Shown: piece by piece, positions 5,391 through 29,634 of the stretch | How positions within the stretch are numbered: the stretch's first letter is position 1 | Layout: each line of letters begins with the position of its first letter | Source of the DNA: Deltaproteobacteria bacterium | GTDB lineage: Bacteria > Desulfobacterota > Desulfomonilia > UBA1062 | Assembly (NCBI GenBank): GCA_029552245.1 | Contig: JAKPDW010000025.1 | Span: forward strand, 240,104 to 304,103 | DNA: 64,000 nucleotides | Direction of reading: 5' to 3' | Translations under genes and position numbers: made by a program | The notes under the pieces: generated by a model | What the model was told of the DNA's origin: nothing | Seen by the model: only the letters and a program-made list of their open reading frames with translations | Databases searched by the model: none

Positions 5391-5613
5391 AAAGAACAGT
5401 GATTCTCTTGACGTGCAGGCCTTGCCGTGGTATTGCCACCGGTGAAGGCAGGGAGGCGAAGTGTGCTGTTCCCGGCGCGTCGGACAAGCGGGCAGAGGTT
5501 TCCCGGCCTGGTTCGATGCCCGGGGGCTGGACGATGGAATGAGCTGATCGCGCCTCGTGCTCCACGACGGGGTGTGCGCAGGATGGGGATTACCATGTGC
5601 GGGGAGGTGCCTG

Positions 5614-6684
5614 ATGAGGATCATCGCTGTCATCAACCAGAAGGGCGGGTGCGGAAAGACGACCACGGCCATCAACCTGGGGGCGTGCCTTGCCGGTTTG
5701 TCGAGGAGGGTTCTGGTGGTCGACCTCGACCCCCAGGCCCACGCCACCCTCGGGTTCGGGGTCGACCAGGGGGAGTTCCGCCTGAGCAGCTACGATCTCC
5801 TCATGGAAGGCCGAGACGGGCTTCTCTCTTCTGACATGATCATAAGCCTGAACGAGCGTCTCGACCTCATCCCCTCCGACGTCATGCTCAGCGCGGCCGA
5901 ACCCGTACTGCTGCAGCGCGACGGGAGGGAGCACGTGCTGGAGTCCGTCCTCGCACCACTGGACGGGCGCTACGATTTCGTCGTGCTGGACTGCCCGCCG
6001 AACATCGGCGTGCTCACCTTCAACGCCCTGTATGCGTGCACCGAGGCCATCATACCCATGGAGAGCGGCCTGTTCGCGCTTCACGGGCTGGCCAAGCTGC
6101 TCGAGACCATCGATGTGGTCAACGGCAACCGGGAGGTTCCCATCGAGGTTCACGCGCTCGCCACCATGTTCGACAGGAGGACGAGGATCGCCCACGAGTC
6201 CCTGGAGGAACTCAGGAAGCACATGAGGGGCCGCGTCTTCAGGACGGTCGTGAACTTCAACGTGAAGCTCAAGGAGGCCTCCGGCTACGGCATGCACATC
6301 CTCGAGTACGACCCGGACTCCCAGGGCGCGAAGGACTACCTCGCGCTCGCCAGGGAGGTCCTCTCGGCACGGCCCTCGGCGCGCAAGAGGAGGAAGAAGG
6401 AGGGGTTCCTCAAGCCGGTGGTCACCGAGGACGGGGTGCTCTTCACGTACTACTCGCCCGAGGCCACGTCGGTCCACGTGGTTGCGGACTTCAACGGCTG
6501 GGACACGTCGGGTCTCCCCATGGAGAACGTGGCGGGCACGGGCATGTGGCAACGCTTCGTTCCCCTGAAGAAGGGCAGGTACGAATACAAGTTCCTCGTC
6601 GACGGCAGGTGGGTCAGCGACCCTGACAACCCGAGAAGGGCCGCGAACGAGTTCGGCGAGAACTCGATCCTCGAGATAGCGTGA
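5614..6684 (+). CDS. ParA/Soj-type P-loop ATPase fused to C-terminal CBM48/AMPK-beta glycogen-binding (E-set) domain
   Basis: GGGAGGTG SD then ATG 5614. MRIIAVINQKGGCGKTTTAINLG (deviant Walker A KGGxGKT), VVDLDPQ, LDCPP (Walker B). C-terminal 90 aa FTYYSPEATSVHVVADFNGWDTSGLPMENVAGTGMWQRFVPLKKGRYEYKFLVDGRWVSDPDNP matches the AMPK1_CBM/CBM48 pattern (F.W..V.V.G.FN.W...YKF.VDG.W..DP). Confidence 0.8.
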   Translation: MRIIAVINQKGGCGKTTTAINLGACLAGLSRRVLVVDLDPQAHATLGFGVDQGEFRLSSYDLLMEGRDGLLSSDMIISLNERLDLIPSDVMLSAAEPVLLQRDGREHVLESVLAPLDGRYDFVVLDCPPNIGVLTFNALYACTEAIIPMESGLFALHGLAKLLETIDVVNGNREVPIEVHALATMFDRRTRIAHESLEELRKHMRGRVFRTVVNFNVKLKEASGYGMHILEYDPDSQGAKDYLALAREVLSARPSARKRRKKEGFLKPVVTEDGVLFTYYSPEATSVHVVADFNGWDTSGLPMENVAGTGMWQRFVPLKKGRYEYKFLVDGRWVSDPDNPRRAANEFGENSILEIA

Positions 6685-7538
6685 GCATGCGCGACAGGCC
6701 GAGACTGGGCAGGGGCCTGAAAGACGTGTCGAGGTACTTCCTCGCGGACTCGCATCCCCGCGGCGGTCCCGACCCCGTACCTACGAGCGAGGACGCCCGG
6801 CCGATAAGCGTCTTCGTGTTCCACGCGTCGTCCCCCGAGGTCCAGTCTCTGCTCACCCTCGCCCTCGCCATGGAGACCGCCAGGCTCGGGCGAGGCGCCC
6901 TCATATGGGATGGTATGGCCCAAGGGGCGCAGGGGGTCAAGCGCCTGGCAGGGGGGCTCCTGGCCCGGCCCGGCGGCCGGGATAAGGGCGGGGGCTGCTG
7001 CATAAGGCTCTACGGCCTGGGCGCGATCCCGATACACGATGCGGCCTGCCCGGTCTGGTCGCAGGCGGAGGCCAGTTGCCTTGACCTGCCCGGTGACGGC
7101 GATACCGCCCGAGGGGAGCTCCTCGTGTTCGTCAACGCCTCGCCCGACATGGGTTTCTTCACTCGGGGTGACCTCCCCGACCACACGGTCATCGCGGCCC
7201 GTACCGACGAGCGCAGCCTGCTCAAGGCCTACGCGTGCATGAGGGTGATGGACAGGAGGGCCCCTGGGTCGAGGATGTACCTGGTCCTCGAGGCCCACGG
7301 GGGGGAGCCGGCCAACCAGTGCGACCGGACGTTCGAGAAGCTCGCCTCGTTCGCAAGGGAGAACTCGAAGGCGGCCATCGCATACCTCGGGTGCCTGATC
7401 GCCGACGACGAGACGGCCAGGTCCATCCACGAGGCGGACCCGCTCGCGCTCATGATGTCGCAGTCTCCGGCCGGGGCCTCGCTGAGGGGCGTGTGTTCCC
7501 GCTTCCTGGATCTCGTGCTCGCAGGGGAAACGCCGTGA
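6681..7538 (+). CDS. ParA/MinD-fold paralogue lacking canonical Walker A (pseudo-ATPase partner)
   Basis: GTG start overlaps the upstream stop (GTGA). Architecture parallels MinD (ISVFVFHASSPEVQSLLTLALAMETARLGRGALIWD ... ELLVFVNASPDMGFFT ... HTVIAARTDERSLLKAY), but KGGxGK[ST] is replaced by HASSPEVQS. Confidence 0.5.
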   Translation: MSMRDRPRLGRGLKDVSRYFLADSHPRGGPDPVPTSEDARPISVFVFHASSPEVQSLLTLALAMETARLGRGALIWDGMAQGAQGVKRLAGGLLARPGGRDKGGGCCIRLYGLGAIPIHDAACPVWSQAEASCLDLPGDGDTARGELLVFVNASPDMGFFTRGDLPDHTVIAARTDERSLLKAYACMRVMDRRAPGSRMYLVLEAHGGEPANQCDRTFEKLASFARENSKAAIAYLGCLIADDETARSIHEADPLALMMSQSPAGASLRGVCSRFLDLVLAGETP

Positions 7539-8122
7539 GCCCACCCCCAAGGACGCTCCCGCCCCTTGTCGTCACCGACCCGGCCGAGGTCTCGAGGCTC
7601 TGTGCGCGATGGATCACGGACGTGCTCGGGTGCACGATCGTGGACTTCGGCATCGGGAACAGGTTCATCGGGAGCATCGACGTCCTGGCGGTATCGCACG
7701 ACGTGGTCCATCTGGTGACGGTCGACACGGGGAGCTTCGCCGACGCCCTCCTCGGTGCGTTCACGGGGTACTGGTGGTTCGTCGAGAACAGGGCGTTCTT
7801 GGACAGGATCTACGGCTCGGAAGACACCCCGCTTATGGGCGACGTGGTGCTCGTGATCCTCTCCCGCGACCCTCCGCGGGGGATCCAGAGGATCCTGCCC
7901 TCCCTGCTCAAGGTCAAGCTGCGCCTCTTTCGGTATGCGACCATGGGGACCGCCGAAGAGCCCTTCCTGTGCGTGGAGGAGCTCACCCTCGACGAGGACT
8001 CGGGCGGAGAGACCCACGAGGCCGGTGACGTCGAGGCGCTCGTCCGTGAACTGGGCATCGAGGAGGCGGGGCTCGACGGCGACGAGATCCGGCGCCTCAT
8101 TGCTGCGTTGCGGGCTGCTTGA
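7535..8122 (+). CDS. hypothetical protein, third gene of the ParA-CBM48 operon
   Basis: GTG 7535 overlaps the upstream stop (GTGA) in the same frame as the track ORF 7235..8122. 196 aa with no recognised domain and an acidic C-terminus. Confidence 0.45.
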   Translation: MSPPPRTLPPLVVTDPAEVSRLCARWITDVLGCTIVDFGIGNRFIGSIDVLAVSHDVVHLVTVDTGSFADALLGAFTGYWWFVENRAFLDRIYGSEDTPLMGDVVLVILSRDPPRGIQRILPSLLKVKLRLFRYATMGTAEEPFLCVEELTLDEDSGGETHEAGDVEALVRELGIEEAGLDGDEIRRLIAALRAA

Positions 8123-8978
8123 GGCCCGCCACCCCTTCCGTCCCTCCCCGCACAGGGAGTTCCTTCACCCACCTGGCAAAGATCTTTTCGAGGACGCCCT
8201 TTTCCTTGAGCCTTCCCAGTCCCTTGTTGAGGAGCCCGAGGAGCTTCGTGTCGCCCTTCCTCACCGCGATGGCGTACTCCTCTTCAGGGGCCTGGCAGCC
8301 GCCAAAGGCGGGGACGTCGGCCACCCTGAACCTGCCCTTGAACCTCTTGTCGTCGAGGACGTAGTGGGATGCGACCGGCGCCTCGGCCAGGACGCCCGCT
8401 ATGAATCCGTCTGCGAGGTCCACGAACGCCCGGTCTGTCTCGGCCATGGTGTAGTAGGCGATGGAGCACCTCTGGTAGAGTCTCAACGCCTCTGCCTTCG
8501 GGCACAGCCTGAACACGCCCAGCGATTTCCCCTCCAGAGGTTCGGCCGCGCCCTCAGAGCGCACCACGAGCACCTTGCGGCCCGTGAGGTAGGGTTCCGA
8601 GAAATCGAAGCGCTGCTTCCTGGCGTCCGTGACGGCGATCTGTGCGATCACCGCGTCGCACCTGCCCCGTTCGAGCTCGTCGAGGAGTTTCGACCATGGC
8701 CTTTCCACGAATTTCACCTTCAGGCCCGCCTCCTTGGCGACGGCCTCCATGAGATCCACCTCGTAGCCCACCACCCTGCCCTTGGGGCCCTTCATCTCCA
8801 TGGGCGGACACGTCCCCGTGGTTGCGACGGTGATCACCCCGGGCTTCGCCGCGTGTGCGCCCGGCTCAACCCAAGGCGTCAGCACGGAGAACACGAGGCA
8901 GAGGACGACCACGGCGGTGGACACCCCCTGTCTTGAGGCGTCCCGATCGCGTGACTCGATGCGCGAGCATGGCTTCAT
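8097..8978 (-). CDS. periplasmic polar amino-acid ABC transporter substrate-binding protein (family 3 SBP)
   Basis: C-terminal 293 aa of the 721-aa track ORF starting MKPCSRIES... Signal-like TAVVVLCLVFSVLTPWVEPGAHA, SBP_bac_3-like KVLVVRSEGAAEPLEGKSLG...EEEYAIAVRKGDTKLLGLLNKGL. The upstream 428 codons are a GC artefact opposite the DUF362 gene. Confidence 0.7.
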   Translation of the reverse strand: MKPCSRIESRDRDASRQGVSTAVVVLCLVFSVLTPWVEPGAHAAKPGVITVATTGTCPPMEMKGPKGRVVGYEVDLMEAVAKEAGLKVKFVERPWSKLLDELERGRCDAVIAQIAVTDARKQRFDFSEPYLTGRKVLVVRSEGAAEPLEGKSLGVFRLCPKAEALRLYQRCSIAYYTMAETDRAFVDLADGFIAGVLAEAPVASHYVLDDKRFKGRFRVADVPAFGGCQAPEEEYAIAVRKGDTKLLGLLNKGLGRLKEKGVLEKIFARWVKELPVRGGTEGVAGLKQPATQQ

Positions 8979-9191
8979 GGATGCCGGATGGTACCAGGAA
9001 CGAGGGCGCAGGGCAACAGGGTTGCACAGGGGCCCGGTCACTGCAGGGCCACTTCGGGGTGCGTGAGAAGGGGGCCGATCATGGATGGAGCTGCATGCAG
9101 GCGGGCTTGGGGCCGCGCGCGCTTCCCTTCGGGGCCCGCTCGGGCTATGATAGGTCTTGAGGGAGGCCTCTGTCGTTGCCGGGAGGGCGTC

Positions 9192-10169
9192 ATGGACATC
9201 CTCGATCTCGTGATGAAGTGGTGTGCAGAAAACGGCCGCATGGGCGGGGTGGCCTGGTTGAGCAGGCGCGAGTTCATGAGGCGCCAGGGCCTGCTCGCGG
9301 CATCCCTGGCCTTTTCCGGCCTCGCCCCGAAGGTGTCGTGGGCCGCGTCCGACAGGCCGTATCTCAGCGTCGTCACGGGCGCACCCGGGCCGGCCGCGAG
9401 GATGGCCATCGAGCTCTTGGGCGGCATGGGCTCTTTCGTGAAGAGGGGGCAGAAGGTTGTCATCAAGCCGAACATGAGCTTTTCCGGGGGGGTGAGGGAC
9501 GGCGTCACCACGCACCCCGAGGTGGTCAGGGAGATCGTGGCCATGTGCAGCGAATGCCGGGCAGGCCGTATCCTCGTCCTGGACCACACGCTCAGGCCGC
9601 CCGAACGCTGCATCGGCGAGATAAGGAACGCGTGCAGGCCCTTCGGCGGGGACATCGTCCACGGCCTCGACTCGAGGGACTTCTATCGCCAGGCCGCCAT
9701 ACCGCAAGGCGTCGACCTGAAGGGCGCCGAGGTGATGAAGGACGTTCTCGACGCCGACGTCCTCATCGCGGTCCCCGTGGCCAAGTCGCACTCGAGCACC
9801 GGCGTGAGCCTTTCCATGAAGGGGATGATGGGGCTCGTGTGGAACCGGACCGTCATGCACTGGCGTCACGACCTCGACGAGTCGATCGTGGACTTGTGCA
9901 CGCTCTTGAAACCCTCGCTGGTCGTGATCGACGCGACCAGGGTCCTTTCCACGAACGGGCCGTCCGGTCCGGGCGAGGTGATCTTCGCGGACACCGTGAT
10001 CGCATCCAGGGACATGGTCGCGGCGGACGCCTACACCGTTGCAGCCTTCCCCTGGTATGGGAGGAGGCTCCCCCCGGAGAAGGTCAGGCACGTGAGGATC
10101 GCATCCGCCAGGGGACTGGGGCGGATGGACGTGGGGAACCTGGAGGTGAAGAAGGTGACGTTGCGGTGA
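9192..10169 (+). CDS. DUF362-domain protein with twin-arginine (Tat) signal
   Basis: GGGAGGGCG SD then ATG 9192. SRREFMRRQGLLAASLAFSGLAP is a Tat motif. DUF362 hallmarks KVVIKPNMSF, ILVLDHT, LIAVPVAKSHSSTGVSLSMKGMMG. Confidence 0.75.
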   Translation: MDILDLVMKWCAENGRMGGVAWLSRREFMRRQGLLAASLAFSGLAPKVSWAASDRPYLSVVTGAPGPAARMAIELLGGMGSFVKRGQKVVIKPNMSFSGGVRDGVTTHPEVVREIVAMCSECRAGRILVLDHTLRPPERCIGEIRNACRPFGGDIVHGLDSRDFYRQAAIPQGVDLKGAEVMKDVLDADVLIAVPVAKSHSSTGVSLSMKGMMGLVWNRTVMHWRHDLDESIVDLCTLLKPSLVVIDATRVLSTNGPSGPGEVIFADTVIASRDMVAADAYTVAAFPWYGRRLPPEKVRHVRIASARGLGRMDVGNLEVKKVTLR

Positions 10170-11776
10170 GACCGAAACGCCTTGCCCAGGCAGCCTCGCT
10201 CGCGATCTTCTCGGCGCTCGTGGTATGCGCCTCCGAGTCCCTTGTGTGCGGCGTCGCCGCACGGTGGTTCCTGGGGATGGACCCTGCGGGCGTGGTCCAG
10301 GTGGCCTCCGCTGAAAGGGACATTCCCGCAGGGTATGTGCCCGCCCTCTGCGTGCTGGCCCTCACCCTCCTCGCCGGAAGGTTCTTCTGCTCCATGGTAT
10401 GCCCCCTCGGGGCCTTGGTCGACGTGACGGACTCGGTTTTCGGTGCACAAGGAAGGGTGGCGAGGCCAAAGACTGCGGGCATGAGGGGGGGCAAGTACCT
10501 GGTCCTCGGAATCCTCGCCGCATCGGCGGCCTTCGGGCTGGCCCTTGCGGCGTTTCTCTCCCCCCTCTCCATCATGGCGAGACTTGTGGGCCTTGTCCTC
10601 CACCCCCTGGGGATGGACGCGGCAGGCGCCTTCGTGAGGGCGGCTCGGCCCCTTGCGGAAGATCTCGGCATGACGCGGATAGCGTATGCGGCGGTGACGC
10701 CCAGGGACTACGGGCTCGAGGCCTTGAGCGCGGGCGTCGCGGGCATAGCGCTCGCCGGGGTGGTCTTGGGGCCCCGCTTCTGGTGCAGGTGCCTCTGCCC
10801 TGCCGGAGCGGTGTTCGCGCTCTTCTCGGTGAGGCCCCTCTTGGTCAGGAGGAGGGTGAACGAGGGATGCACGTCGTGCATGAGGTGCGTGGAGCGTTGC
10901 CCCATGCTGGCCATCGGCCCGGACCCGAGAAAGACCGACCACGCGGAGTGCATCGCCTGCATGCGCTGCGCGAGGGTGTGCCCGGTCTCGGCGGTCGGGT
11001 TCCTCCCCGGCGGTGGGAGGACGCAGGGTCGGGGAGCGGGTTTCTCGCGCAGCCGGAGGTTCGTGCTCCTCGGTGTCCTGTTCGCTGCGGCATCCGGCGC
11101 CGTCCTCGCGAGGTTCCTGAACCCCGTGGGCCTCGGGGGAAGCCGGGTCGCACGAGCGGGTTTCGGCGTCTTGAGGCCACCCGGTTCCGTCCCCGGCGGG
11201 GGGTTCGAACTGAGGTGCGTCGGGTGCGGGCTGTGCATGACGGTCTGCCCCACCAACATCCTGAGGCCTTCTGGCGCCTTGGCGGGTGCAGGCGCGGCGT
11301 TCAGCCCGACCGTGGACTTCTCGTCCGGGCCGTGCGACACCTCATGCACCAGCTGCACGCAGGTATGCCCGACGGGCGCCATACGACCCCTGTCGCCGGC
11401 CGAGAAGAAGACCGTGAAGGTGGGCACCGCCCGTATCGACACGACGACCTGTATCGCGTGGGCATCCGCGAAGGCGTGCCTCGTGTGCGACGAAGTATGC
11501 CCCGTAGGTGCCGTGGAGTTGAGGCGGGAGCCTCATGCGGCCCTCGCGGTGCCCGTGGTCAGGGAGGATCTGTGCATCGGGTGCGGGTATTGCGAGCATC
11601 ACTGCCCGGTGAGGCCTGAGAGGGCGATCGTGGTGACGGCGGATGGCGCGGGGCTCAGGGTCGAGGGACTCGGCTTGGGGGGTGCGGAGAAGAAGGTGGA
11701 TGGGGGCATCGGGGGTCAGGGCGGGGACGAAGCGCTTCCCGGCGGCAAGCTCTTGCCGCCTGGGTTCTCGGACTGA
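10166..11776 (+). CDS. membrane polyferredoxin, NapH/MauN/CcoG-like (multiple TM segments, about four 4Fe-4S C-x2-C-x2-C-x3-CP motifs)
   Basis: GTG 10166 overlaps the DUF362 stop (GTGA). FFCSMVCPLGAL (NapH-type motif), CTSCMRCVERCP, CIACMRCARVCP, CVGCGLCMTVCP, CTSCTQVCP, CLVCDEVCP, CIGCGYCEHHCP, interleaved with hydrophobic helices. The 5' kilobase of track ORF 9176..11776 is an artefact. Confidence 0.7.
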   Translation: MRPKRLAQAASLAIFSALVVCASESLVCGVAARWFLGMDPAGVVQVASAERDIPAGYVPALCVLALTLLAGRFFCSMVCPLGALVDVTDSVFGAQGRVARPKTAGMRGGKYLVLGILAASAAFGLALAAFLSPLSIMARLVGLVLHPLGMDAAGAFVRAARPLAEDLGMTRIAYAAVTPRDYGLEALSAGVAGIALAGVVLGPRFWCRCLCPAGAVFALFSVRPLLVRRRVNEGCTSCMRCVERCPMLAIGPDPRKTDHAECIACMRCARVCPVSAVGFLPGGGRTQGRGAGFSRSRRFVLLGVLFAAASGAVLARFLNPVGLGGSRVARAGFGVLRPPGSVPGGGFELRCVGCGLCMTVCPTNILRPSGALAGAGAAFSPTVDFSSGPCDTSCTSCTQVCPTGAIRPLSPAEKKTVKVGTARIDTTTCIAWASAKACLVCDEVCPVGAVELRREPHAALAVPVVREDLCIGCGYCEHHCPVRPERAIVVTADGAGLRVEGLGLGGAEKKVDGGIGGQGGDEALPGGKLLPPGFSD

Positions 11777-11985
11777 TGGGAAGCCCGGCCCCGTATCGGC
11801 GGCGTCCTGGGGGGACGGCGGGGTCATACGGGTCAGGTCGCCCTTGCAGGGGGGTTCGGCAAAGGACCGGTTCGCCGGTCGTGAGGCCCGGTGCGCCACC
11901 TGTGTGCCGGGGACACGACACGCACCGGTTACGGTTGACCGCTTCGGTAACGATTCGCTAACGACCGGCACCGGACGGGGAGGCT

Positions 11986-13398
11986 ATGGGAACGTTCACT
12001 GAGGATCGGAAGGGGAAGTGGGCTCGATGCGTCCTGGCCGTCATGGTCGCAGTGACGGTCGTGGGGTCCGGGTGCGCGAGGAAGGTCGTGGTCGTGAACT
12101 ACCTCGGGTCTCCCGCGCTGGCGCCCGGGACCGATCCGGCGATGAACACGGCGGGTTTCTGGATAGACAGGTGCGACGCGGTGGACGAGGTGATCATGGA
12201 TGCTCGTTCCATCGCCCTGTTCAACGAGCAGACCCGGCAGCGTACCCGGGCGGTGACCGACGTGACGAGGCTCTCGGACAAGAGGTCGGGAAAGGCCCTC
12301 AGGGACTCGCTGGAGCGCATGTACGCATCGATCCTCCTCAGGGGGTACGTCGATGCGGACGGCAAGAAGGCCTTGGGCATGCTCGAGGAGATCAAGGGGA
12401 ACATGGCCCTCGACTCGATCCCCGAGACCGTGGACGTCAGGTGGGCCTTGGTCGCCCGGTTCACCGACCAGAGGCTCCTGCCCACCACTGATGCGTTGTA
12501 CAAGGATGCGTCGGACAGATCCATAGACCGCCTCCAGAACAACACCCTCGACCTCGCAAGCGAGGTGGCCGTGTGTCACGAGAGCAAAGACGGCGGGTGG
12601 ACGTACGTCATCGGGCCTTACAGCGAAGGGTGGGTGAGGAGCTCGGACATCGCGGTGTGCGAGAGGGGCCTCATCGAGCGCTACCGCGCGTGGGAGCCCT
12701 TCGTCGTGACTCTCCAGCCCAAGACGGACCTCTTCCTCGACCCCATGCTCAGGCGAAGGGCGGCATGGGTGCAGATGGGGACGAGGCTCCCCCTCCTCGA
12801 GCGCGTAAACGGAGAGGTCTCCAAGGTCCTCGTGCCCGTTCGCGGTCAGGACGGCACGTGCGTCTTCGACGCGGCGTACGTGGCGACGAGGGACACAAGC
12901 GAGGGATACCTGCCCTACACGCCGAGAAACGCCCTCGTCCAGGCCTTCAGGCTCCTCAACGCCCCGTACGGGTGGGGGGGCATGTACGGTGAACAGGACT
13001 GCTCCCGGCTCGTTCAGCAGGTCTTCGCGACCTTCGGGATCCTCATGCCCAGGAACTCGTCCCAGCAGGCAAGGGTGGGCAAGGTGATCGCCGACCTCTC
13101 GGGGGAGGCCGATCCTGCTCAGAGACGGGCTGCGATCACCCAGCTCGCAACCCCGGGCATAACCACGCTGCAGTTCCCTGGCCACATCATGCTCTACATC
13201 GGGCACGTCTCGGGCATCCCCTACGCCATCCACGACCTCCACGCGTACACGGAAAAGGTCGACGGCGAGGAGAGGACCATAGCGCTCGCGCGGGTGTGCG
13301 TGACGAGCCTCGATCTCGGCGGGACCTCCTCCAGGGGGTCGTTCCTCATGCGCATCGCGAACGTGCGGGAAATCGCGCTTGAAGGTCTCACGCCCTGA
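11986..13398 (+). CDS. NlpC/P60-family cell-wall endopeptidase lipoprotein with SH3b-like domains (YkfC/DPP VI-like)
   Basis: Lipobox VVGSGC. C-terminal NlpC/P60 catalytic region YGWGGMYGEQDCSRLVQQVF...GHIMLYIGH (Cys-His). Confidence 0.7.
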   Translation: MGTFTEDRKGKWARCVLAVMVAVTVVGSGCARKVVVVNYLGSPALAPGTDPAMNTAGFWIDRCDAVDEVIMDARSIALFNEQTRQRTRAVTDVTRLSDKRSGKALRDSLERMYASILLRGYVDADGKKALGMLEEIKGNMALDSIPETVDVRWALVARFTDQRLLPTTDALYKDASDRSIDRLQNNTLDLASEVAVCHESKDGGWTYVIGPYSEGWVRSSDIAVCERGLIERYRAWEPFVVTLQPKTDLFLDPMLRRRAAWVQMGTRLPLLERVNGEVSKVLVPVRGQDGTCVFDAAYVATRDTSEGYLPYTPRNALVQAFRLLNAPYGWGGMYGEQDCSRLVQQVFATFGILMPRNSSQQARVGKVIADLSGEADPAQRRAAITQLATPGITTLQFPGHIMLYIGHVSGIPYAIHDLHAYTEKVDGEERTIALARVCVTSLDLGGTSSRGSFLMRIANVREIALEGLTP

Positions 13399-13626: not shown

Positions 13627-13776
13627 ACATTGACGCCTGCATGCCGTCTGGCTCGGCCGAAGGTGGGGGGACTACGGTGTATCCCGATGGGCTCGGTACC
13701 CGGGTGTGTCTGAACGATCGCCTGCGTGCGTGGGCGGAGATGCGGCATACTATGGAATGAAGCGGGGGGTTCACCA

Positions 13777-16740
13777 ATGAACAGGCTTCTCGGAAGGATG
13801 AGCGAATTCATCGTCAGGCAGAGGGTCGCGGTCCTCGCCGTGACGGTGGCGGTCACCTGCGTCATGGTCTTCATGATAGCGACCAGGATCACCGTGAACA
13901 ACGACCATGACACCTGGCTGCCGAAGCACAACGAGGTCGCGAAGCTGTTGCGCCAGGCGGACGAGGATTTCTCGTCGAACGTGATGCTGTTCGCCGTGAT
14001 CGAGTTCAAGGACGGGGTGTTCAAGCCCGAGAACCTGGCGGTCGTGGACCGCATCACGAAGGAGCTCGAGAAGATGGACGAGCTCTTCAACGTCACCAGC
14101 GTGACCAACATCATCGACATCAAGAAGACGCAAGACGGCATCGAGGTGTCCGACCTCGTCAGGAGCGTGCCGAAAGACGGCGGGGAGGCGCTGGGGCTGA
14201 GGGATTACGTGATGTCCAAGGAGACCTACGTGAACACCGTGGTATCCGCGGACGAACGGTTCACCTGCGTCATGACCAACATCAAGAGCGACCTGGACGA
14301 GGTCAAGGTGGCGGAGAAGATCTACCGGACCATCGACACCATCGCCGGCGGGCACGTGCGCTATTACGGCGGCGACCCATCGGTGAACTACTACCTGAAT
14401 TACTACATGGTCGAGGACCTGAAGAAGCTGTTGCCGCTCGGCGTGATCGTGGTCATGACCGTGATCTTCCTGGGCCTGAGGAGGGTGTCGGGCGTCGTGC
14501 TCCCCATGACCATCGTCGCGTTCGCCATCGTGTGGACCTTCGGCCTCCAGGCGATCTTCTCCTTCCCCGTGAACATCCTGAGCCCTGCGGTCGTCGTCCT
14601 GCTGATCGCGCTCGGGACCGACTACGCGGTACACTACTACAACCACCACATGAAGCGCGGCGACGTGCGCACCTCCACGGCGGAGATATCGCTGCCCGTG
14701 ACCATGAGCGCGTTCACCACCATCGTGAGTCTCCTCACCTTCGCCACCACGCGCATAGAGGTCTTCAAGAACTTCGGGCTCGAGCTCGCCTTCGGCCTGG
14801 CCGCGGCGTGGATCCTCTCCATCGTGCTCATGGCCGTGTTCATTGCGATCTTCAAGGTCAACCCCCAGCAGGGCGCTGACGATGAAGGCCCCAGGCAGAC
14901 GACCTTCACGCGGGCGACCGACAGCCTGGGGGCCTTCGTGCAGAGGCACGCGAAGGCCATCCTGGTGGTGGTCGGCCTGGCGAGCGTCGGCATGGCGTTC
15001 GGCGTGCCGAGGATAAGCACGAACGTCGACTTCATCGGCCAGCTCCCCAAGGACAGTCCGCCGAGGAGGGGATGTGACATCCTGCAGGAGCACTTCAGCG
15101 GCATGTACCCGTTCAACCTCTACGTGCGCGCCGACATCCAAGACCCCGCCGTCATGAACCGCATGCAATACCTGGAAAACTGCATGCGTACCGAGAATGG
15201 CGCCTCGGGTTTCACCTCCATCAACGCCCTCATAGCGCAGGAGAACTGGCTGCTGAACGGTGTGTACGCCATCCCCGAGACGAGGGAGGGGATAGCGAAC
15301 CTGTGGTTCATGCTCGAGGGTCACGACGTCCTCAAAACCTTCGTCACCGAGGGCAGGGACAAGGCCCTGGTGAACTCCATCGTGAACGAGTCGTCCACCG
15401 AGGACATGCGCTTCGTGGCCGACCGCCTGGATGCCATCCTGCAAGGCCGCTTGTCCGAGGAGATCGTCACGGTGGACCCGTCCAGGCTCACCGAAGAGGG
15501 GCGAGGCGCGCTGGAGAAGGTCATGATCAGGGATGCGGCCGAGCAGGTCGCGTGGCTCGCCAGGTATTACGACAAGAAGACCGTCGTTGACCCGCTCATG
15601 GTGGAGGAGGCCCTCACGAAGGCCCTGCACGGTATCGAAGGGCTCGTGGATGTCGAGGCCGTGAGGAGGGACGTCGAGGCCTTCCTCAAGACAGAGACCG
15701 TGGAGATCCTGCCGGAGGCCCTGGTCGCCGGGATCATGGAGAGGGTCGGCGGACTCGTGGGCGCGGGCCTTACCCGCGAAGCGGCCGACGACATCGAGGG
15801 CATGATCGTCGCGTCCGGCGCCATGGGTGCGGAAGACGCGAAGACCACGGTCGAGGGTATGTCGAGACGCCTCGACTCGAGCCTGAGGATCCAGAAGGCG
15901 GTGGCGCTCGCCAAGGCGCTGACCAGCCTGATACCCGAGGGGATCCGCGGGAACGAGAACTTCGTGAAGAGGACGGAGGGCGTCCTCTGGGGCCTCTTCA
16001 GCCCCCGTCCGGTGATGTTCTCGAGGCAGGTGGAGTCTGTACCGGGCATCTCCGGGGCGATAGCGGGCTCGGTGAGGGCGAAGATCGACCAGGCGGGGAT
16101 GCCCGCGACGGTGAGACTCGTACACCACCTCCTCATCTCAAGCCAGGTCCAGAGCTTGGTCCTGGCCATCTGCGCGGTGCTCGTCATGGTCTCCCTGGCC
16201 CATCGCTCGCTGAGGCGCGGGCTGGCGTCCATGCTGACGGTCCTCGTGCCGCTCGTGTTCATCCTCGGGTTCATGGGGCTCGTGGGCATGCCCCTCGACA
16301 TCGGCACCGTGCTCTGTGGGTCACTCATCGTGGGGCTCGGGATCGACGGGTCGATCCATTTCCTGCACTACTACAGCAGGCTCCACGAGCAGGGCACGCC
16401 CAAGGACACCGCCATACGCATGACCATGGGGCACGTGGGCAAGGCGGTGTGCACGGCGAACGGGACCACGCTGGCCGGTTTTCTCGTGTGCCTGATCTCG
16501 GACGTGACCGCGGTGAGGAACTTCGCCACGTTGAACTCGATCGCCATCGTGTTCGTCACCGCATCGGTCATGACCCTCCTGCCGGCGCTCGTCACCATCC
16601 TTCACCTGGACAGGATGGACGACGTGGAGGAGGGCTCGAGGACCGGGACCACGACGGTGTTCAGGCTCAGGAGGCCCGCCTGCAAAGGGATGGAGAAAGG
16701 GGAAGAGGAACGAAAGGCCGCCCGGGCGGCAGGCGGATGA
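13777..16740 (+). CDS. MMPL/RND-superfamily exporter (two 6-TM sterol-sensing-like bundles with large periplasmic domains)
   Basis: 987 aa. N-terminal TM then large soluble loop, twice. MMPL-typical GLxxxFxLELAFG, LGIDGSIHFLHYY. Confidence 0.75.
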   Translation: MNRLLGRMSEFIVRQRVAVLAVTVAVTCVMVFMIATRITVNNDHDTWLPKHNEVAKLLRQADEDFSSNVMLFAVIEFKDGVFKPENLAVVDRITKELEKMDELFNVTSVTNIIDIKKTQDGIEVSDLVRSVPKDGGEALGLRDYVMSKETYVNTVVSADERFTCVMTNIKSDLDEVKVAEKIYRTIDTIAGGHVRYYGGDPSVNYYLNYYMVEDLKKLLPLGVIVVMTVIFLGLRRVSGVVLPMTIVAFAIVWTFGLQAIFSFPVNILSPAVVVLLIALGTDYAVHYYNHHMKRGDVRTSTAEISLPVTMSAFTTIVSLLTFATTRIEVFKNFGLELAFGLAAAWILSIVLMAVFIAIFKVNPQQGADDEGPRQTTFTRATDSLGAFVQRHAKAILVVVGLASVGMAFGVPRISTNVDFIGQLPKDSPPRRGCDILQEHFSGMYPFNLYVRADIQDPAVMNRMQYLENCMRTENGASGFTSINALIAQENWLLNGVYAIPETREGIANLWFMLEGHDVLKTFVTEGRDKALVNSIVNESSTEDMRFVADRLDAILQGRLSEEIVTVDPSRLTEEGRGALEKVMIRDAAEQVAWLARYYDKKTVVDPLMVEEALTKALHGIEGLVDVEAVRRDVEAFLKTETVEILPEALVAGIMERVGGLVGAGLTREAADDIEGMIVASGAMGAEDAKTTVEGMSRRLDSSLRIQKAVALAKALTSLIPEGIRGNENFVKRTEGVLWGLFSPRPVMFSRQVESVPGISGAIAGSVRAKIDQAGMPATVRLVHHLLISSQVQSLVLAICAVLVMVSLAHRSLRRGLASMLTVLVPLVFILGFMGLVGMPLDIGTVLCGSLIVGLGIDGSIHFLHYYSRLHEQGTPKDTAIRMTMGHVGKAVCTANGTTLAGFLVCLISDVTAVRNFATLNSIAIVFVTASVMTLLPALVTILHLDRMDDVEEGSRTGTTTVFRLRRPACKGMEKGEEERKAARAAGG

Positions 16741-17158: not shown

Positions 17159-20100
17159 ATGGATGCAAGAAGGAAGGGCCGGGGGGCGCCCGGTACGGAC
17201 GGTCCCCGTGTTGCGTCGAAAAGCCATAGGTCCGGGCCCCTGACCTCACGTGTGCTCGCAGCCCTCTTCTCGTCGAACCCCACCGCCATGGCGGTGTCCG
17301 AACTGCCAACGGGAAAGATCGTCGAGGTGAACGAGGCCTTCGTGAGCCTGACCCTCTTCGCCAGGGAAGAACTCGTCGGCCGCGAGGTTACAGGCCTCGG
17401 CATCTGGGCGGACCCACAGGAGAGGGAGCGCTACCTGGAACTCCTGCGCACCGAGGGCGCGGCACGGGAATTCAGGTGCAGGCTCAGGCGCAAGGACGGC
17501 GAGCTGCGAGATGTGGTCCTCAACGGCTCCATGGTCCGCGGCCATCGCTCCGGAGGGATCGTGGTGAGCTTCCTCAGGGACGTGACCGACCAGCTCAGGC
17601 TCCAGAAGGAAATCGCACAGAGCGAGGAGCGATACCGTCGCATCACCTCCGCGGTCACGGATTACATCTACACGGTGCACATCGAGGGCGGCAACGTGGT
17701 GCGCACGGTGCACGGCGCGGCCTGCGAGGCGGTCACCGGGTACACTCCCGAGGACTTCGAGCGAGACCCGTTCCTGTGGTACACCATGATCTTCGAGGAT
17801 GACAGGGAGGCCGTGAGGGAACACTTCAACAGGGTGACGACCGGAGAGCGCTGCCAGCCCATCGAGCACCGCATAAGGCGCAAGGACGGCACGGTCAGGT
17901 GGGTGAGCAACATACCCGTCATCCACAGGGACGCATCCGGGAACATCGTGGGCTACGACGGTGTCTTGAGCGACATCACCGAGCGCAAGCTCGCGGAGAA
18001 GGAGCTCAAAGAGAGCGAGGAGCGGTTCAAGGCCCTGCACGAGGCATCCTTCGGGGGCATCGGGATCCATGACAGGGGCCTCATCCTCGACTGCAACAGG
18101 GGCCTCGAGGTCATCACGGGTTACAGCCGCGAGGAGCTCATAGGCATGAACGGGCTCATGCTCATCGCCCCCTCCTGGCGTGAGCACGTCATGGAGAAGA
18201 TCGTCTCGGGCTACGAGAGGCCCTACGACGTGGAGGGGATCCGCAAGGACGGCACGATCTACCCGCTCGAGATCCAGGGGAAGCAGATCCCCTACCACGG
18301 GAAGACGGTGAGGGTCACGGAGTTCAGGGACATCACCTGGCGAAAGCGGATCGAGGACGAGATCAGGGTGCGCCAGGCCAGGATCGACAGCATCTTCAGG
18401 GCTGCGCCCGTCGGTATCGGGATGGTGGTCGACAGGGTGATACAGGAGGTGAACGACCGCGTATGCGAGATGACCGGGTACAGCAGGGAGGAACTCACCG
18501 GGGTCTCTGCTCGCGTCCTGTACCCGGACGATGACGAGTTCGAGCGCGTGGGCAGGGAGAAGTACGCCCAGCTGGAAAAGGCCGGGGTGGGAACCGTCGA
18601 GACGAGGTGGAAGAGGAAGGACGGGTCCATCATCCACATCATCCTCAGCTCTGCGCCCATTGACCCCCGAGATCCCGGCACAGGGTACACCTTCACCGCC
18701 CTCGACATCACCATGCGGAAGCTCGCCGAAGACAGGCTCAAGGAGAGCGAGGAGCGATACCGCCTCATGGCCGAGCTCACCGGAAAGCTGGTCTACGACG
18801 TCGACCTCGACGCCGGCAGGCACACCTGGGACGGCGCCGTGGAGGTGATCTCCGGGTACACGAGGGAGGAGTTCGCATCGGTGGACATGGCGGGCTGGAC
18901 GCGCATGATCCACCCCGAGGACAGGCCCGGAGTGATCATGGCGTTCGAGAGGGCGCTCAACACGCGCAAGCCCTTCAGGGCCGAGTACCGCATCCTCAGG
19001 AAAGACGACAAGACCATATACGTCGAGGACAACGGCGTGTTCGTGACCGACAAGTCCGGGAGGCCCTACCGCATGCTCGGGAGCATAGGGGACATCACGG
19101 CCCGCAGGCTCTCCGAGCTGGCGCTCAAGGAGAGCGAGGAGCGCTACCGCAACATGTTCGACAACTCGCACGCCGTCATGCTCCTTGTAGACCCGGCGAG
19201 CGGCGCCATCGTGGACGCGAACCCTGCTGCGTGCTCGTACTACGGGTATTCCAAAAACGAGCTCGTCTCGATGAAGATCACGGACATAAACACGCTCAGC
19301 CCAAGGGAGATCTTCGCCGAGATGGAGCGGGCGCGCTCCAGCAGGAAGCGGTACTTCAACTTCAAGCACCGCCTTGCGGACGGAGTCGTTCGGGACGTGG
19401 AGGTCTTCAGCGGGCCCATCACGGTCGAGGGCCGAACCCTCCTGTTCTCCATCGTTCACGACGTGACCGACCGGAGGCTCGCCGAAGAGGCCCTCAGGCG
19501 GAACGAGGAACGGTTCCGGCAGATCCTTCAGAACATAGCGGACATCATCGTGATCCTCGACAGCCAGGGCCGCATCACCTACGAGACCCCTTCCCTGGCG
19601 CGCGTGCTCGGTTACGCGCCGGGCCATCTCGTGGGCGCATCCCCCCTCGACCTCGTCCATCCCGAAGACAAGGAACTCGTGGCCCGCGATCTCACAGGGG
19701 TCTACGAGGGGACGAACAACGGCATCCCCACCGAGTTCCGCATATTGAAAGCGGACGGGACGTGGATCTACCTGGAGGCAATAGGCAGCAGGCTCGAGGG
19801 TGAGAGCCGGCAGGGCAGCGTGATCATCACGGCGCGCGACGTGACCGACCGCAAGAAGGCCGAGGGTGCGAAGATGGAGATGGAGAGGCGGATGCTCCAC
19901 GCGCAGAGGCTCGAGAGCCTCGGCGTGCTGGCCGGCGGCATAGCACACGACTTCAACAACCTCCTCATGGCCATCCTGGGGAATATCGACCTGGCACGGA
20001 TAGACGTCCCCCCCGGGTCCAGGGCGATGACCTTCCTGGACAACGCCATGATGGCGTCCAGGAGGGCCGCGGACCTCACGAACCAGATGCTCGCCTACTC

Positions 20101-21070
20101 GGGCAGGGGCAGGTCGGAGTTCGAGGAGATCGAACTGAGCGGGTTCATTCAGGGGATGACGGACCTCATCAGGGCGTCCATCTCCAAGGGGGCAGTCCTC
20201 ACGGTGAGGGCCGCCGAGGGACTCCCCCCCGTCAAGGCCGACCCGGACCAGATCCGGCAGGTCGTCATGAACCTCGTCGTGAACGCCTCCGAGGCCATCG
20301 GTGATGCACCGGGCTCCATAACCGTTTCAACGGACCTCGTGTACTGCTCCGAGGGCGACCTGAGCCTGAGCCGCCTTCCTGACAAGCCTGCTGCAGGGGA
20401 ATACGTGGTGTTGGAGGTCCGCGACACCGGCTGCGGCATGGACGAGAACACCCTGGAGCTCTTGTTCGACCCCTTCTTTTCCACCAAGTTCACGGGAAGG
20501 GGCCTCGGCATGGCCGCTGTGAGCGGCATCGTGAAGGCACACAAGGGCGCGATCACGGTGGAGTCCGAGCCGGGCAAGGGTACCACCTTCAGGGTGTACC
20601 TGCCTGTGGCCCCCGGAAAGGGGGAGCCCAGAGGGGGGGCGTCGGAAAGGGGCGGGGCGACGGACGGGGATACTGCCCGTGAGGGCATGGCAGGCCCCTC
20701 GGAGGGCTTTCTCGTGCTCGTGGTGGACGACGAGGACCTGGTGAGGGAAACCTGCGCCTCCATGATCTCCCGGCTCGGCCACCGGGTGCTCACGGCATCA
20801 GACGGCATGCAGGCCCTCGAGATCTACAAGGAGAAGCGTGACAAGATCGCCTGCGTCGTGCTCGACCTCACCATGCCGGTCATGGACGGCATAGAGACCC
20901 TCGCCGCACTCAGGCGCATGGACGAGGGGGTGAAGGTCATCCTGTCGAGCGGCTACGACGTCGCGGAGGCGGGCAGGATGTTCGAGGGCCTAGGGGCGAC
21001 CGGTTTCATCAAGAAGCCGTATAGCATGGAACAGCTCAGGCGGGTGCTCGAGGGGGTGAAGCCGGACTGA
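17159..21070 (+). CDS. hybrid sensor histidine kinase with about 6-7 PAS/PAC domains, HisKA-HATPase core and C-terminal receiver domain
   Basis: AGGAAGGG SD. Repeated PAS modules separated by conserved linkers ([72 protein letters not shown]). H-box [23 protein letters not shown]. G-box [18 protein letters not shown]. Receiver DDEDLVRE...[12 protein letters not shown]. Confidence 0.9.
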   Translation: [1303 protein letters not shown]

Positions 21071-27891: not shown

Positions 27892-27907
27892 TGGCACGGG
27901 TATTGCT
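27892..27907 (+). promoter_or_regulatory. sigma-54 (RpoN) promoter: TGGCAC-gggta-TTGCT
   Basis: TGGCAC at 27892-97 and TTGC at 27903-06 with the canonical 10-nt GG-to-GC spacing, in an AT-rich island (aataaaaactataaatgaac just upstream, IHF-like), 60 nt upstream of the ATG at 27967. Confidence 0.6.
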
Positions 27908-27966
27908 GTCATGAGGGGTAGATTGTTTCATATTATAGCAATAAAAGTGGCGTGGGAGGTGACGGT

Positions 27967-28296
27967 ATGGCAGGTGACGTGAACTTCAAGGACACGAGGG
28001 CCGGCAGGAGGACCTCGGATGCGAGGTGTGCAAGGGCGGCCCAGGCCATCATGGAGATCCTCAAGTACCAGTGCCAGGGGTTCATCCTCCCACCCCCGGA
28101 GGTCAGGCACCTCCTGGGCCTCGATCCCGAAGACAGGGCATGGCACCTGAACGAGCGCGTCGCATTGCTCAAGAAGGAGCTCGCAAGGCGCTTCGTGGCC
28201 ATGGACGTGAGTCCCATCGTGGGTGCCACGATCCAGCTCTACCGCGTGCCCCCCGTGAACGGGGCGCCGTATCCTTCGCGTTACCTGAGGCAGTGA
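27967..28296 (+). CDS. small hypothetical protein (109 aa) downstream of sigma-54 promoter
   Basis: GGGAGGTGA SD then ATG 27967 (internal Met of track ORF 27952). No recognised domain. Confidence 0.45.
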   Translation: MAGDVNFKDTRAGRRTSDARCARAAQAIMEILKYQCQGFILPPPEVRHLLGLDPEDRAWHLNERVALLKKELARRFVAMDVSPIVGATIQLYRVPPVNGAPYPSRYLRQ

Positions 28297-28525: not shown

Positions 28526-28614
28526 CCTGATGCAAGCGGGGAGGTGAGATGTTGACATGGGGCGGGAATCGGGCACATTGGATATGACGCACAACACAGA
28601 CGCACGAGGTGATC

Positions 28615-29634
28615 ATGGGTATAACCTACGTACCTGCAGAGGCTACCGGCCGGGCAGCGATCGATGCCCTGGATACCCTGCTAGGGATGCTCGATGTCCC
28701 CTTTTCGCGCGGGTCCAGGGTGGGCGTGAAGCTCCACTGGGGGGAAAGGGGCAACAAGAGCTATCTCGAGCCCGCCTACGCGCGCGGGATCGTGCGGTGG
28801 CTCAAAGACCTCGGCATGGACCCTTTCGTGTTCGATACCACCGTGCTCTACTCAGGGGGCAGGAGGAACGCGGCCGACTCCCTCGAGACAGCCGCTTCCC
28901 ACGGATTCACGAGGGATTTCCTGGGATGCGACGTGGTCATAGCCGACGGCATGGACGGCCGGAACGTGGTGGACATCCCTGCCGGCTACAAGCACTTCAA
29001 GACGGTGCAGGTGGCATCCATCGTCCATGAGGCCGACGGCTTCGTGATCTTCTCCCACTTCAAGGGGCACCTCGCAGCCGGCTTCGGCGGCGCCGTGAAG
29101 AACGTGTCCATGGGGTTCGCGTCCCGCGCCCAGAAGCAGCGCATGCACGCGGACGTGAAGCCCGTGCTGAACCAGAAGAGGTGCACGAAGTGCGGGGTGT
29201 GCGCGAGCGTGTGCCCCACGGGGGCCGCGTCCATGCAAGGTGACGGCTACCCGAGCTATGACCTCGAGGTGTGCATCGGGTGCGCCCAGTGCATCGCCCA
29301 GTGCCCCGAGGTGGCGCTGAAGATCCTGTGGGGAGGCGATCACGAGGCCTTCCAGGAGAAGCTCGTCGAGACGGCCAAGGCCGTCTGGGACGTCATAGGC
29401 CGAAGGACGACGGTCATAAACGCGCTCGTGAAGATAAGCGCCGAGTGCGACTGCCTGCCGGGCAAGGTCGAGATCATCTCCGAAGACAAGGGTTTCGTCG
29501 CAGGAACCCACCCCGTGGAGGTCGACGCCGACTGCGTCAGGCGCGTGGGTGAGGACGTGATCACGAAGGCCCACAGCTACCTGCCCTGGCAGAGGCAGTT
29601 TTCCTACGCGAGAGAGATAGGGTTTGTGTATTGA
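28615..29634 (+). CDS. DUF362-domain protein with inserted 2x[4Fe-4S] ferredoxin module
   Basis: GAGGTGA SD then ATG 28615. DUF362 hallmarks VGVKLHWGE, VIADGMDGRN, FSHFKGHLAAGFGGAVKNVSMG. Ferredoxin insert CTKCGVCASVCP / CIGCAQCIAQCP. C-terminal ECDCLPG. Confidence 0.7.
   Translation: MGITYVPAEATGRAAIDALDTLLGMLDVPFSRGSRVGVKLHWGERGNKSYLEPAYARGIVRWLKDLGMDPFVFDTTVLYSGGRRNAADSLETAASHGFTRDFLGCDVVIADGMDGRNVVDIPAGYKHFKTVQVASIVHEADGFVIFSHFKGHLAAGFGGAVKNVSMGFASRAQKQRMHADVKPVLNQKRCTKCGVCASVCPTGAASMQGDGYPSYDLEVCIGCAQCIAQCPEVALKILWGGDHEAFQEKLVETAKAVWDVIGRRTTVINALVKISAECDCLPGKVEIISEDKGFVAGTHPVEVDADCVRRVGEDVITKAHSYLPWQRQFSYAREIGFVY

Follow-up and report, generated by a model that had tools for sequence, protein, structure and literature searches.

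A conserved two-gene module of a predicted Tat-exported DUF362 protein and a NapH-NapG fusion polyferredoxin in Desulfobacterota

The DNA analyzed here, referred to as the window, is a stretch of 64,000 nucleotides (nt) from a Deltaproteobacteria bacterium (contig JAKPDW010000025.1, positions 240,104 to 304,103). At positions 9192-11776 of the window, two overlapping genes are encoded on the plus strand: gene A, coding for a DUF362 protein with a signal for the twin-arginine translocation (Tat) pathway, and gene B, coding for a membrane-bound polyferredoxin of the PFD type. The pair is conserved across deep divergence and is read here as a probable electron-transfer module. The following features were assigned (positions in amino acids, aa, refer to the respective protein):

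9192..10169, plus strand: gene A, Tat-exported DUF362 protein of 325 aa with a predicted LarA N-domain fold (ATG 9192, TGA 10167-10169)
9192..9344, plus strand: predicted Tat signal peptide of A, aa 1-51, with an n-region of about 23 aa, S24-RREFMRR, h-region and SWA, predicted cleavage after A51
9783..9860, plus strand: putative active-site stretch of A, K198-x-H200 ... K210 ... H223, (nearly) invariant across 134 diverse sequences
10166..10169, plus strand: GTGA, start codon of gene B over the stop codon of gene A (translational coupling), read directly
10166..11776, plus strand: gene B, NapH-NapG fusion polyferredoxin (PFD type) of 536 aa with five membrane helices
10382..10414, plus strand: first NapH-type motif of B, FFCSMVCPLGA (C75, C79-P80), aa 73-83, predicted at the cytoplasmic end of transmembrane helix 2 (TM2); Pfam Fer4_5; invariant
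10778..10810, plus strand: second NapH-type motif of B, FWCRCLCPAGA (C207, C211-P212), aa 205-215, predicted at the cytoplasmic end of TM4; invariant
10868..10984, plus strand: predicted cytoplasmic 2x[4Fe-4S] ferredoxin domain of B (C235-C245, C262-C272); Fer4_9/Fer4_10 at aa 231-276; eight Cys invariant
11045..11119, plus strand: internal twin-arginine motif of B, SRSRRF (R297-R298), and predicted Tat-dependent fifth helix
11168..11638, plus strand: predicted periplasmic NapG-like domain of B, four [4Fe-4S] motifs after RPPG; 16 Cys invariant
11645..11773, plus strand: disordered C-terminal tail of B ending in LPPGF (aa 530-534); predicted local distance difference test (pLDDT) below 50 for aa 494-536

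The GTG start codon of gene B (10166-10168) overlaps the TGA stop codon of gene A (10167-10169), just as an earlier sequence-only reading of this DNA had stated, and gene B ends with TGA at 11774-11776. A Shine-Dalgarno-like GGGAGGG is located 5 nt 5' of the gene A start. The public gene call for A (P0001) is longer, with 357 aa (9096-10169) and a start 32 codons 5' of ATG 9192. The twin arginines (RR) of the homologues typically occupy residues 22-23, as compared to 25-26 in gene A, which supports ATG 9192 as the start; by this comparison of sequences, the 357-aa call is probably too long and the shorter form probably correct. The GTG start of gene B is supported by Q8 and F15, which were invariant in 40 homologues. 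The G+C content of the A/B region (66-69%) is similar to that of the remainder of the window, the proteins A and B are each 100% identical to entries of public protein collections, and the A/B locus is also present on a 42.8-kb metagenome contig.

Protein A matched the Pfam family DUF362 (PF04015) at aa 89-283 with an E-value of 2.5e-41 (142.4 bits, cutoff 24), the match spanning profile positions 1-199 of 200. Its Tat string SRREFMRRQGLL is located at aa 24-35, with the h-region at aa 32-46 and SWA at aa 49-51, and the signal would be cleaved after A51. The NCBIfam Tat signal model TIGR01409 scored 20.3 bits, above its cutoff of 16.7, and RRxF was found in 119 of the 120 closest homologues, usually after an n-region of about 20 residues. 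A profile search with A over 1.84 billion representative proteins returned 7,805 clusters at E <= 1e-3, 525 of them also at E <= 1e-30. The RR motif was present in 122 of the 133 best full-length representatives at 50% identity, which are 28-54% identical to A; several RK variants occurred among those lacking it, and many representatives carry a lipobox cysteine and a Pro/Thr-rich linker. Since RR is kept across these relatives, Tat export appears to be a trait of a large clade and not due to chance. Thus, both the DUF362 identity and the Tat signal, which had been proposed from the letters of the sequence, were corroborated.

Protein B contains six canonical CxxCxxCxxxCP-type clusters and was matched twice by Pfam Fer4_5. 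The NapH-type motifs noticed in the sequence-only reading were confirmed by Pfam; its count of at least five Cys clusters was too low, and its description of B as NapH-like holds for the motifs and is incomplete, since NapH and NapG parts are fused in B and an RR lies within the protein. Of the traits of NapH, B shares the four membrane helices, the two CX3CP motifs and the cytoplasmic 2x[4Fe-4S] domain. R337-P-P-G is followed by Cys groups at aa 351-361, 390-401, 429-445 and 470-480. The NapH models TIGR02163 and NF007013 matched aa 183-279 with 75.3 bits (cutoff 213) and 72.6 bits (cutoff 234), respectively. The NapG/MauM models matched aa 324-502, all under cutoff (NapG NF007012 at aa 328-491, E 2.3e-21, 76.1 bits vs. 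269; MauM/NapG TIGR00397, E 3.1e-20, 72.7 bits vs. 178.85). B is NapH-like and is not a NapH orthologue.

In 40 PFDs from both subfamilies, all cluster Cys, both CX3CP motifs, R297-R298 and R337-P-P were invariant, and the internal RR was at least 95% conserved in 120 homologues of B. The AlphaFold2 model of B (pLDDT 73, predicted template modelling score (pTM) 0.76) showed helices at aa 2-23, 55-93, 109-122, 185-220 and 295-318 and a tail disordered from aa 494. The charge distribution is consistent with an N-in topology, and R313, R324 and R327 follow helix 5. Based on the NapH topology and the positive-inside rule, the CX3CP motifs and the di-cluster domain would be cytoplasmic and the four-cluster domain periplasmic. 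A rough Hessa-scale sum gave a family mean of +3.96 for TM5 vs. +0.97 for TM1 (33 of the 40 sequences), which fits a weakly hydrophobic fifth transmembrane domain (TMD5). Matches to B by Foldseek and by sequence were soluble polyferredoxin modules only, for example FwdF, RnfB and MvhB.

The PFD of delta proteobacterium MLMS-1 (UniProt Q1NSB0) has been described as a NapH-NapG fusion (Tooke et al. 2017, eLife, PMC5449189). Fusions to MBP, AmiA and Bla used as reporters in E. coli revealed that RR and Tat are required for its fifth helix and its C-terminal domain, and the protein is inserted by both Sec and Tat (PMC5449189). The layout is the same as in B, i.e., four NapH-like helices and two CX3CP motifs, followed by a cytoplasmic di-cluster, RR immediately before TMD5 and a four-cluster NapG-like periplasmic domain. 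BLASTP of B (aa 29-284) against the published MLMS-1 PFD construct (aa 1-364) yielded 30% identity (E 7e-20). With about 33% identity over the full length, B belongs to another subfamily than MLMS-1 PFD. By analogy to this homologue, 30% identical over the membrane region, B may likewise be inserted by both Sec and Tat. The study of PFD makes no mention of DUF362 and assigns neither a function nor a partner to PFD (PMC5449189).

The two subfamilies also differ at their C-termini: B ends in a disordered tail of 45 aa with LPPGF, whereas the MLMS type ends in GESRSxxNQLLL. The tail motif, GLPPGF[ST][ED], resembles a short linear docking motif on a tether. PPGF was present in 110 of 120 close homologues and absent from the two other PFD subfamilies, the MLMS type and the lipoprotein type. 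Co-variation of the LPPGF tail with a WYGRR insert of the DUF362 protein was considered and rejected: the tail is subfamily-specific, but strict WYGRR occurred in only 28 of 78 loci, giving no clean signal.

The NapGH systems of E. coli and Wolinella succinogenes, as well as MauMN and NosGH, resemble B in combining a NapH-type membrane protein with a four-cluster NapG ferredoxin, and the Tat-exported NapG passes electrons to a Tat-exported periplasmic enzyme. CX3CP, RPPG and four CxxCxxCxxxCP motifs are common to NapGH and B. In contrast to NapGH, the H and G parts form one polypeptide in B, RR is internal and a nap, nos or mau context is lacking: the scanned open reading frames (ORFs) of the window included no nap (napA/B/C/D included), nos or mau gene. 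The partner of B is a DUF362 protein, while that of NapGH, MauMN and NosGH is a molybdo-, copper- or tryptophan tryptophylquinone (TTQ)-enzyme. The flavinylated conduits, i.e., NosR, PceC and relatives, share with B the PF12801 membrane Fe-S module as a modular conduit, which connects electron pools of the membrane or cytoplasm to an oxidoreductase outside the cytoplasm (Méheust et al. 2021, PMC8238504). Their periplasmic relay is an FMN (flavin mononucleotide)-binding domain flavinylated by ApbE, whereas in B a NapG-like domain with four [4Fe-4S] clusters takes this place; neither an FMN_bind nor an ApbE gene was seen.

These comparisons bear on the route electrons would take through B. In a quinone-independent exporter or importer, cytoplasmic donors such as ferredoxin would feed the di-cluster, the CX3CP centre and then the periplasmic clusters and A. 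The invariant cytoplasmic di-cluster domain of B fits such a route, B has neither haem nor a recognised quinone site, and NapH-like proteins are described as moving electrons across the membrane via Fe-S centres, with quinol as donor only 'in some cases' (PMC8238504). Yet biochemical work exists only for the NapGH relatives in E. coli and W. succinogenes, which act as quinol dehydrogenases (cited in PMC5449189), and no conserved cytoplasmic partner gene is located nearby. A strict bypass of quinones is thus considered rather unlikely, and it would be a variant of the model in which B wires A to the quinone pool or the cytoplasm, not an opponent of it.

The genomic association of A and B was analyzed with a profile of A against one genome per species. 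Relatives of A were found in 529 genomes, of which the best 80 loci were analyzed; all of these were in metagenome-assembled genomes (MAGs) of Desulfobacterota/Thermodesulfobacteriota. With three further loci from exact-protein look-ups, 83 genome loci were available. A homologue of B followed directly 3' of A on the same strand at 71 of them, and at 72 of the 78 with sufficient room if one locus with an intervening gene is included. The remaining loci end too soon (five), have A and B separated by an additional gene of 272 aa (one) or have room but no B (six). The start codon of B lay over the stop codon of A in 57 of the 72 loci, and the gap was 0 nt or less in 61. The intervening 272-aa gene (locus L018, 3226-4044, a Desulfobacteraceae MAG) encodes a protein with a Cys-rich N-terminus (CRECGEKTCLAFAG...).

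The association extends to remote relatives. A third subfamily of A, about 40% identical to A and with lipoprotein-type signals, was represented by 80 loci in a metagenome scan; 56 of these had 500 nt or more of sequence 3' of A, and in 53 of the 56 a PFD gene was found there. Immediately 5' of the gene for a protein 99% identical to MLMS-1 PFD, on a contig of 4.9 kb, lies a gene for a 301-aa DUF362 protein with a DRRKFL signal, and in Desulfurivibrio alkaliphilus a DUF362 gene is located directly 5' of PFD, too. A MAG of the Dissulfurispiraceae (Nitrospirota) carries DUF362 and PFD genes 3.3 kb apart on one strand, with toxin-antitoxin genes between them. Thus, the synteny expected from the sequence-only reading was found in genomes and metagenomes alike. 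The predicted topology places both the four-cluster domain and the DUF362 protein on the periplasmic side and not with cytoplasmic ferredoxins.

To see whether the module includes a further conserved gene, e.g., for a chaperone, a regulator or a substrate-related enzyme, ORFs from 86 genome and 41 metagenome loci were clustered all against all. Only A, B and antisense shadow ORFs were recovered, and the idea of a third recurrent gene was discarded. Desulfonema ishimotonii has only the A-B pair in common with the window, the flanks differing by lineage. Hence, the module consists of A and B only and is conserved across deep divergence in three diverged subfamilies.

The fixed pairing also speaks to the idea that B is a general electron hub for several periplasmic enzymes, with A as one client or as hub regulator, in which case adjacency would tell little about the chemistry of A. 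NapH-like proteins are indeed modular electron conduits to periplasmic oxidoreductases and are reused with many enzymes (PMC8238504), and some genomes have A without adjacent B. However, A is the only gene recurring with B at about 220 loci from three subfamilies, and the stop/start overlap implies a fixed stoichiometry. A hub function of B is therefore regarded as very improbable.

In the window-type Tat-DUF362 proteins, the n-region before RR is of conserved length, about 20 residues, and is predicted to be helical at aa 3-14; the MLMS-type proteins have no counterpart. Tat proofreading chaperones are known for the signals of NapA and TorA. The n-region of A (9192-9260, aa 1-23) could be a binding site for such a chaperone; a gene for a candidate chaperone was not found near the module.

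In order to interpret A itself, its predicted structure and conserved residues were compared with those of known proteins. No function was given for DUF362 in the literature searched, and queries for PF04015/COG2006 likewise returned no relevant result. In this respect the sequence-only statement that DUF362 lacks an assigned function stood; it has to be extended by a LarA fold and a conserved His/Lys/His triad. The AlphaFold model of A, built with 37 homologues (pLDDT 90.6, pTM 0.82), showed the fold of the N-domain of LarA, the nickel-dependent lactate racemase. As reference, the LarA sequence of L. plantarum was used, which is identical to PDB 5HUQ chain A and has H108, H174, K184 and H200 at the published positions. 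In LarA, H174 is catalytic, K184 tethers the cofactor and H200 binds Ni. The fold relationship between DUF362 and LarA is firm, and the triad (H200, K210, H223) is likely retained in A; significance at the sequence level is not claimed beyond the Pfam cross-hits. One of these is LarA itself, which scored 23.9 bits against the DUF362 hidden Markov model (HMM), just under the cutoff of 24. Gene A had no match to Lar_N or LarA_C even at E <= 10 and is therefore not classed as LarA.

Among 134 diverse Tat-DUF362 sequences, N94, K198, H200, K210, H223, G256-P257 and D279 were essentially invariant. An HMM built from these sequences aligned H200/K210 with LarA H174/K184 via a SHxxxGxSxxxK pattern, an alignment not significant alone. 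With hhalign, A and LarA were collinear but weakly so (E 0.018, H200/K210 over H174/K184), and a second hhalign run, for which the profiles were richer, settled on another alignment that was insignificant. Searches of PDB with the sequence and the profile of A gave no significant match (two chance matches with E of about 0.8 for the sequence, none for the profile). Proteins of the LarA superfamily (DUF2088/Lar_N), which are nickel-pincer nucleotide enzymes, are like A in the fold of the N-domain, whereas A lacks the LarA_C domain, is exported and is paired with an Fe-S wire. Moreover, the second catalytic His of LarA, H108, is not conserved in the A family, its possible counterpart H132 being kept in only 39% of the 134 sequences, and the SDHTRP motif is replaced by KPN in A. 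No lar genes were found in the scanned window ORFs, and none recurred near the module. An Fe-S cluster or a disulfide on C119/C140/C148 of A was also considered; this was rejected, as these residues were kept in 79%, 51% and 19% of the 134 relatives, respectively, and as MLMS-type DUF362 proteins have just two Cys.

A second DUF362 gene of the window bears on the relation of the family to LarA and to ferredoxins:

28609..29634, plus strand: second DUF362 protein, predicted cytoplasmic, GTG 28609, with a 2x[4Fe-4S] insert at aa 184-235

The insert had been recognised in the sequence-only reading; the start lies at 28609 and not at 28615 as given there. Against Pfam Lar_N, the protein scored 22.6 bits, just below the cutoff of 23.3, over a stretch with H154, K164 and H180, whose 10/16 spacing is identical to that of LarA H174/K184/H200. 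The HMM of the 134 Tat-DUF362 sequences aligned K198, H200, K210 and H223 of A with K152, H154, K164 and H180 of this paralogue (E 5e-7). Because the insert starts 3-5 residues after H180, electron carriers are placed next to the site, and DUF362 domains appear to have been joined repeatedly to Fe-S electron carriers. The two window genes are very distant paralogues (BLASTP E 0.08), which weakens the former argument that this organism uses DUF362 proteins in regulated redox roles.

The regulatory part of that argument, a sigma-54 promoter at the second DUF362 gene, is weak. The only good sigma-54-like site, TGGCACGGGTATTGC (TGGCAC-N5-TTGC, 27892-27906, plus strand), is located about 700 nt 5' of the gene, and an unannotated ORF of 114 aa (27952-28296, plus strand) lies in between, 45 nt from the site. 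If real, the element would drive the 114-aa ORF first. The loose sigma-54 pattern was not enriched in the window, with 18 matches compared to 11.3 ± 3.2 expected.

Taken together, a reading in which A is a periplasmic redox enzyme of LarA fold, wired by B to the quinone pool or the cytoplasm, is moderately favored. As a self-contained pair of translationally coupled genes, A and B would make up an operon whose products transfer electrons on the outer side of the cytoplasmic membrane. A would fold in the cytoplasm, presumably be loaded there with its cofactor and then be exported by Tat, with a lipid anchor in some lineages. Sec would insert the four B helices with the two CX3CP motifs, the 2x[4Fe-4S] domain remaining cytoplasmic, and the internal RR would direct Tat to insert helix 5 and to export the folded four-cluster domain. 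The periplasmic clusters of B may then dock on A, and electrons may pass between the active site of A and either the pool of menaquinone, which would resemble NapGH, or the clusters on the cytoplasmic side. This proposal draws on the architecture, the MLMS-1 homologue, the conserved coupling, the NapH-like modular conduits (PMC8238504) and the DUF362-ferredoxin associations. Gene structure, motifs, fold, conservation and synteny are established by the analysis; the A-B complex, the electron transfer and its direction, the substrate and the cofactor of A are putative parts of this model.

Several observations weigh against it. As regards B, its low NapH and NapG scores, far under the cutoffs, mean that quinol oxidation is not transferable by orthology. 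TM5 of the window protein (+1.13 vs. +2.2 for TM1 in the rough Hessa-scale sum) is not less hydrophobic than TM1, unlike in most of the family, and neither Foldseek nor the sequence search returned a solved structure of a NapH-type membrane domain against which the B model could be checked. As regards A, no conserved Cys motif and no recognisable redox cofactor were found in the Tat-DUF362 proteins, no experiment in the searched literature ties any DUF362 protein to redox chemistry, and the characterised enzymes with a LarA fold are all redox-neutral racemases or epimerases. Finally, intact Tat-DUF362 genes that are followed by at least 1.5 kb of sequence but have no PFD gene nearby occurred at six genome loci (L022, L023, L028, L041, L034, L039) and three metagenome loci (L127, L136, L159). 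Four of the genome loci (L022, L023, L028, L041) carry the label Desulfococcaceae or Desulfobacterales.

The nature of the structural relatives, the lack of cluster-binding Cys in A and these nine loci would all be expected if A were a redox-neutral LarA-like isomerase or a non-catalytic periplasmic binding protein that exchanges no electrons with B. Co-expression would then reflect a need of B for A in assembly or stability, or one envelope process shared by both. This explanation is judged unlikely, since the tight translational coupling is kept in three diverged subfamilies, since a six-cluster wire without another conserved partner would have nothing to reduce or oxidise and since, in a cytoplasmic paralogue, a 2x[4Fe-4S] domain of its own is inserted beside the conserved triad.

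A more specific and speculative version of the redox-enzyme reading, to which only a low probability is given, concerns the cofactor: the Tat-DUF362 proteins might be extracytoplasmic enzymes of the nickel-pincer nucleotide, which LarB, LarE and LarC produce, or of a related pincer, with two-electron hydride chemistry coupled via the six clusters of B to the quinone pool. Attachment of the cofactor at K210 and H223 in the cytoplasm would explain export via Tat. In about 15% of genomes, larB/E/C are present and larA is missing (PMC11796402), most cyanobacteria produce the nickel-pincer cofactor yet lack LarA (PMC11796402), and new users of the cofactor are currently sought (PMC11796402, PMC13524815). 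Gene A also matched the cyanobacterial 'Npun_F2552 family' NCBIfam NF052623, at an E-value of 1.3e-16 and far under the cutoff. As most cyanobacteria make the cofactor without LarA, the DUF362-like family NF052623 may be a candidate cofactor user.

Around the module, a minus-strand, divergent SBP_bac_3 gene is located 5' of A, and an SH3_6/NlpC-P60 gene follows B after 210 nt. A scan of 8700-12200 for sigma-70 promoters and terminators gave one minus-strand site, no terminator and nothing useful. The order SBP, A, B and NlpC-P60 of the window is kept in a Syntrophaceae MAG. A block comprising 5557-8122 (plus strand), 8097-8930 (minus strand) and 11986-13398 (plus strand) recurs around the module in 15-17 related genomes and not in other lineages; it contains a ParA-like ATPase with CBM48, two ORFs without Pfam match, the divergent SBP_bac_3 gene and the SH3_6/NlpC-P60 gene. 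This block is lineage synteny and not part of the module. Further downstream, a 1004-aa MMPL/RND-type transporter (13726-16740, plus strand) and a hybrid histidine kinase of 1303 aa (17159-21070, plus strand), which contains several PAS domains and one receiver domain, are encoded; for neither was a link to the module seen. The window also encodes a molybdopterin oxidoreductase with Fe4S4, Molybdopterin and Molydop_binding domains (40763-43000, minus strand). Its Fe4S4 domain starts at residue 3, leaving no Tat signal, and the enzyme is presumably cytoplasmic.

B belongs to the PFD family, which had been described before. In the searched literature, neither the conserved module of A and B nor a LarA-type triad of DUF362 proteins is reported. 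The PFD polyferredoxins, which served as a model for Sec/Tat cooperation and have no assigned function, thereby gain a near-universal candidate partner in Tat-DUF362. DUF362, in turn, gains a periplasmic location, predicted for a clade of more than 500 clusters at 50% identity, together with a probable electron supply and a LarA-based hypothesis for its active site. At least 529 species-level genomes are carriers, the best matches being sulfate-reducing and syntrophic Desulfobacterota, and Nitrospirota are also represented; the module may represent an unrecognised branch of their anaerobic respiratory chains. If the pincer proposal were true, the 'hidden redox' site of the LarA type would work as a true respiratory dehydrogenase or reductase, and nickel-pincer chemistry would be extended beyond the cytoplasm into catalysis coupled to electron transport. 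DUF362, with about 7,800 clusters at 50% identity including ferredoxin-fused cytoplasmic forms, would then be a second large family of pincer-cofactor enzymes and a candidate for the 'missing' user in genomes with larB/E/C but no larA.

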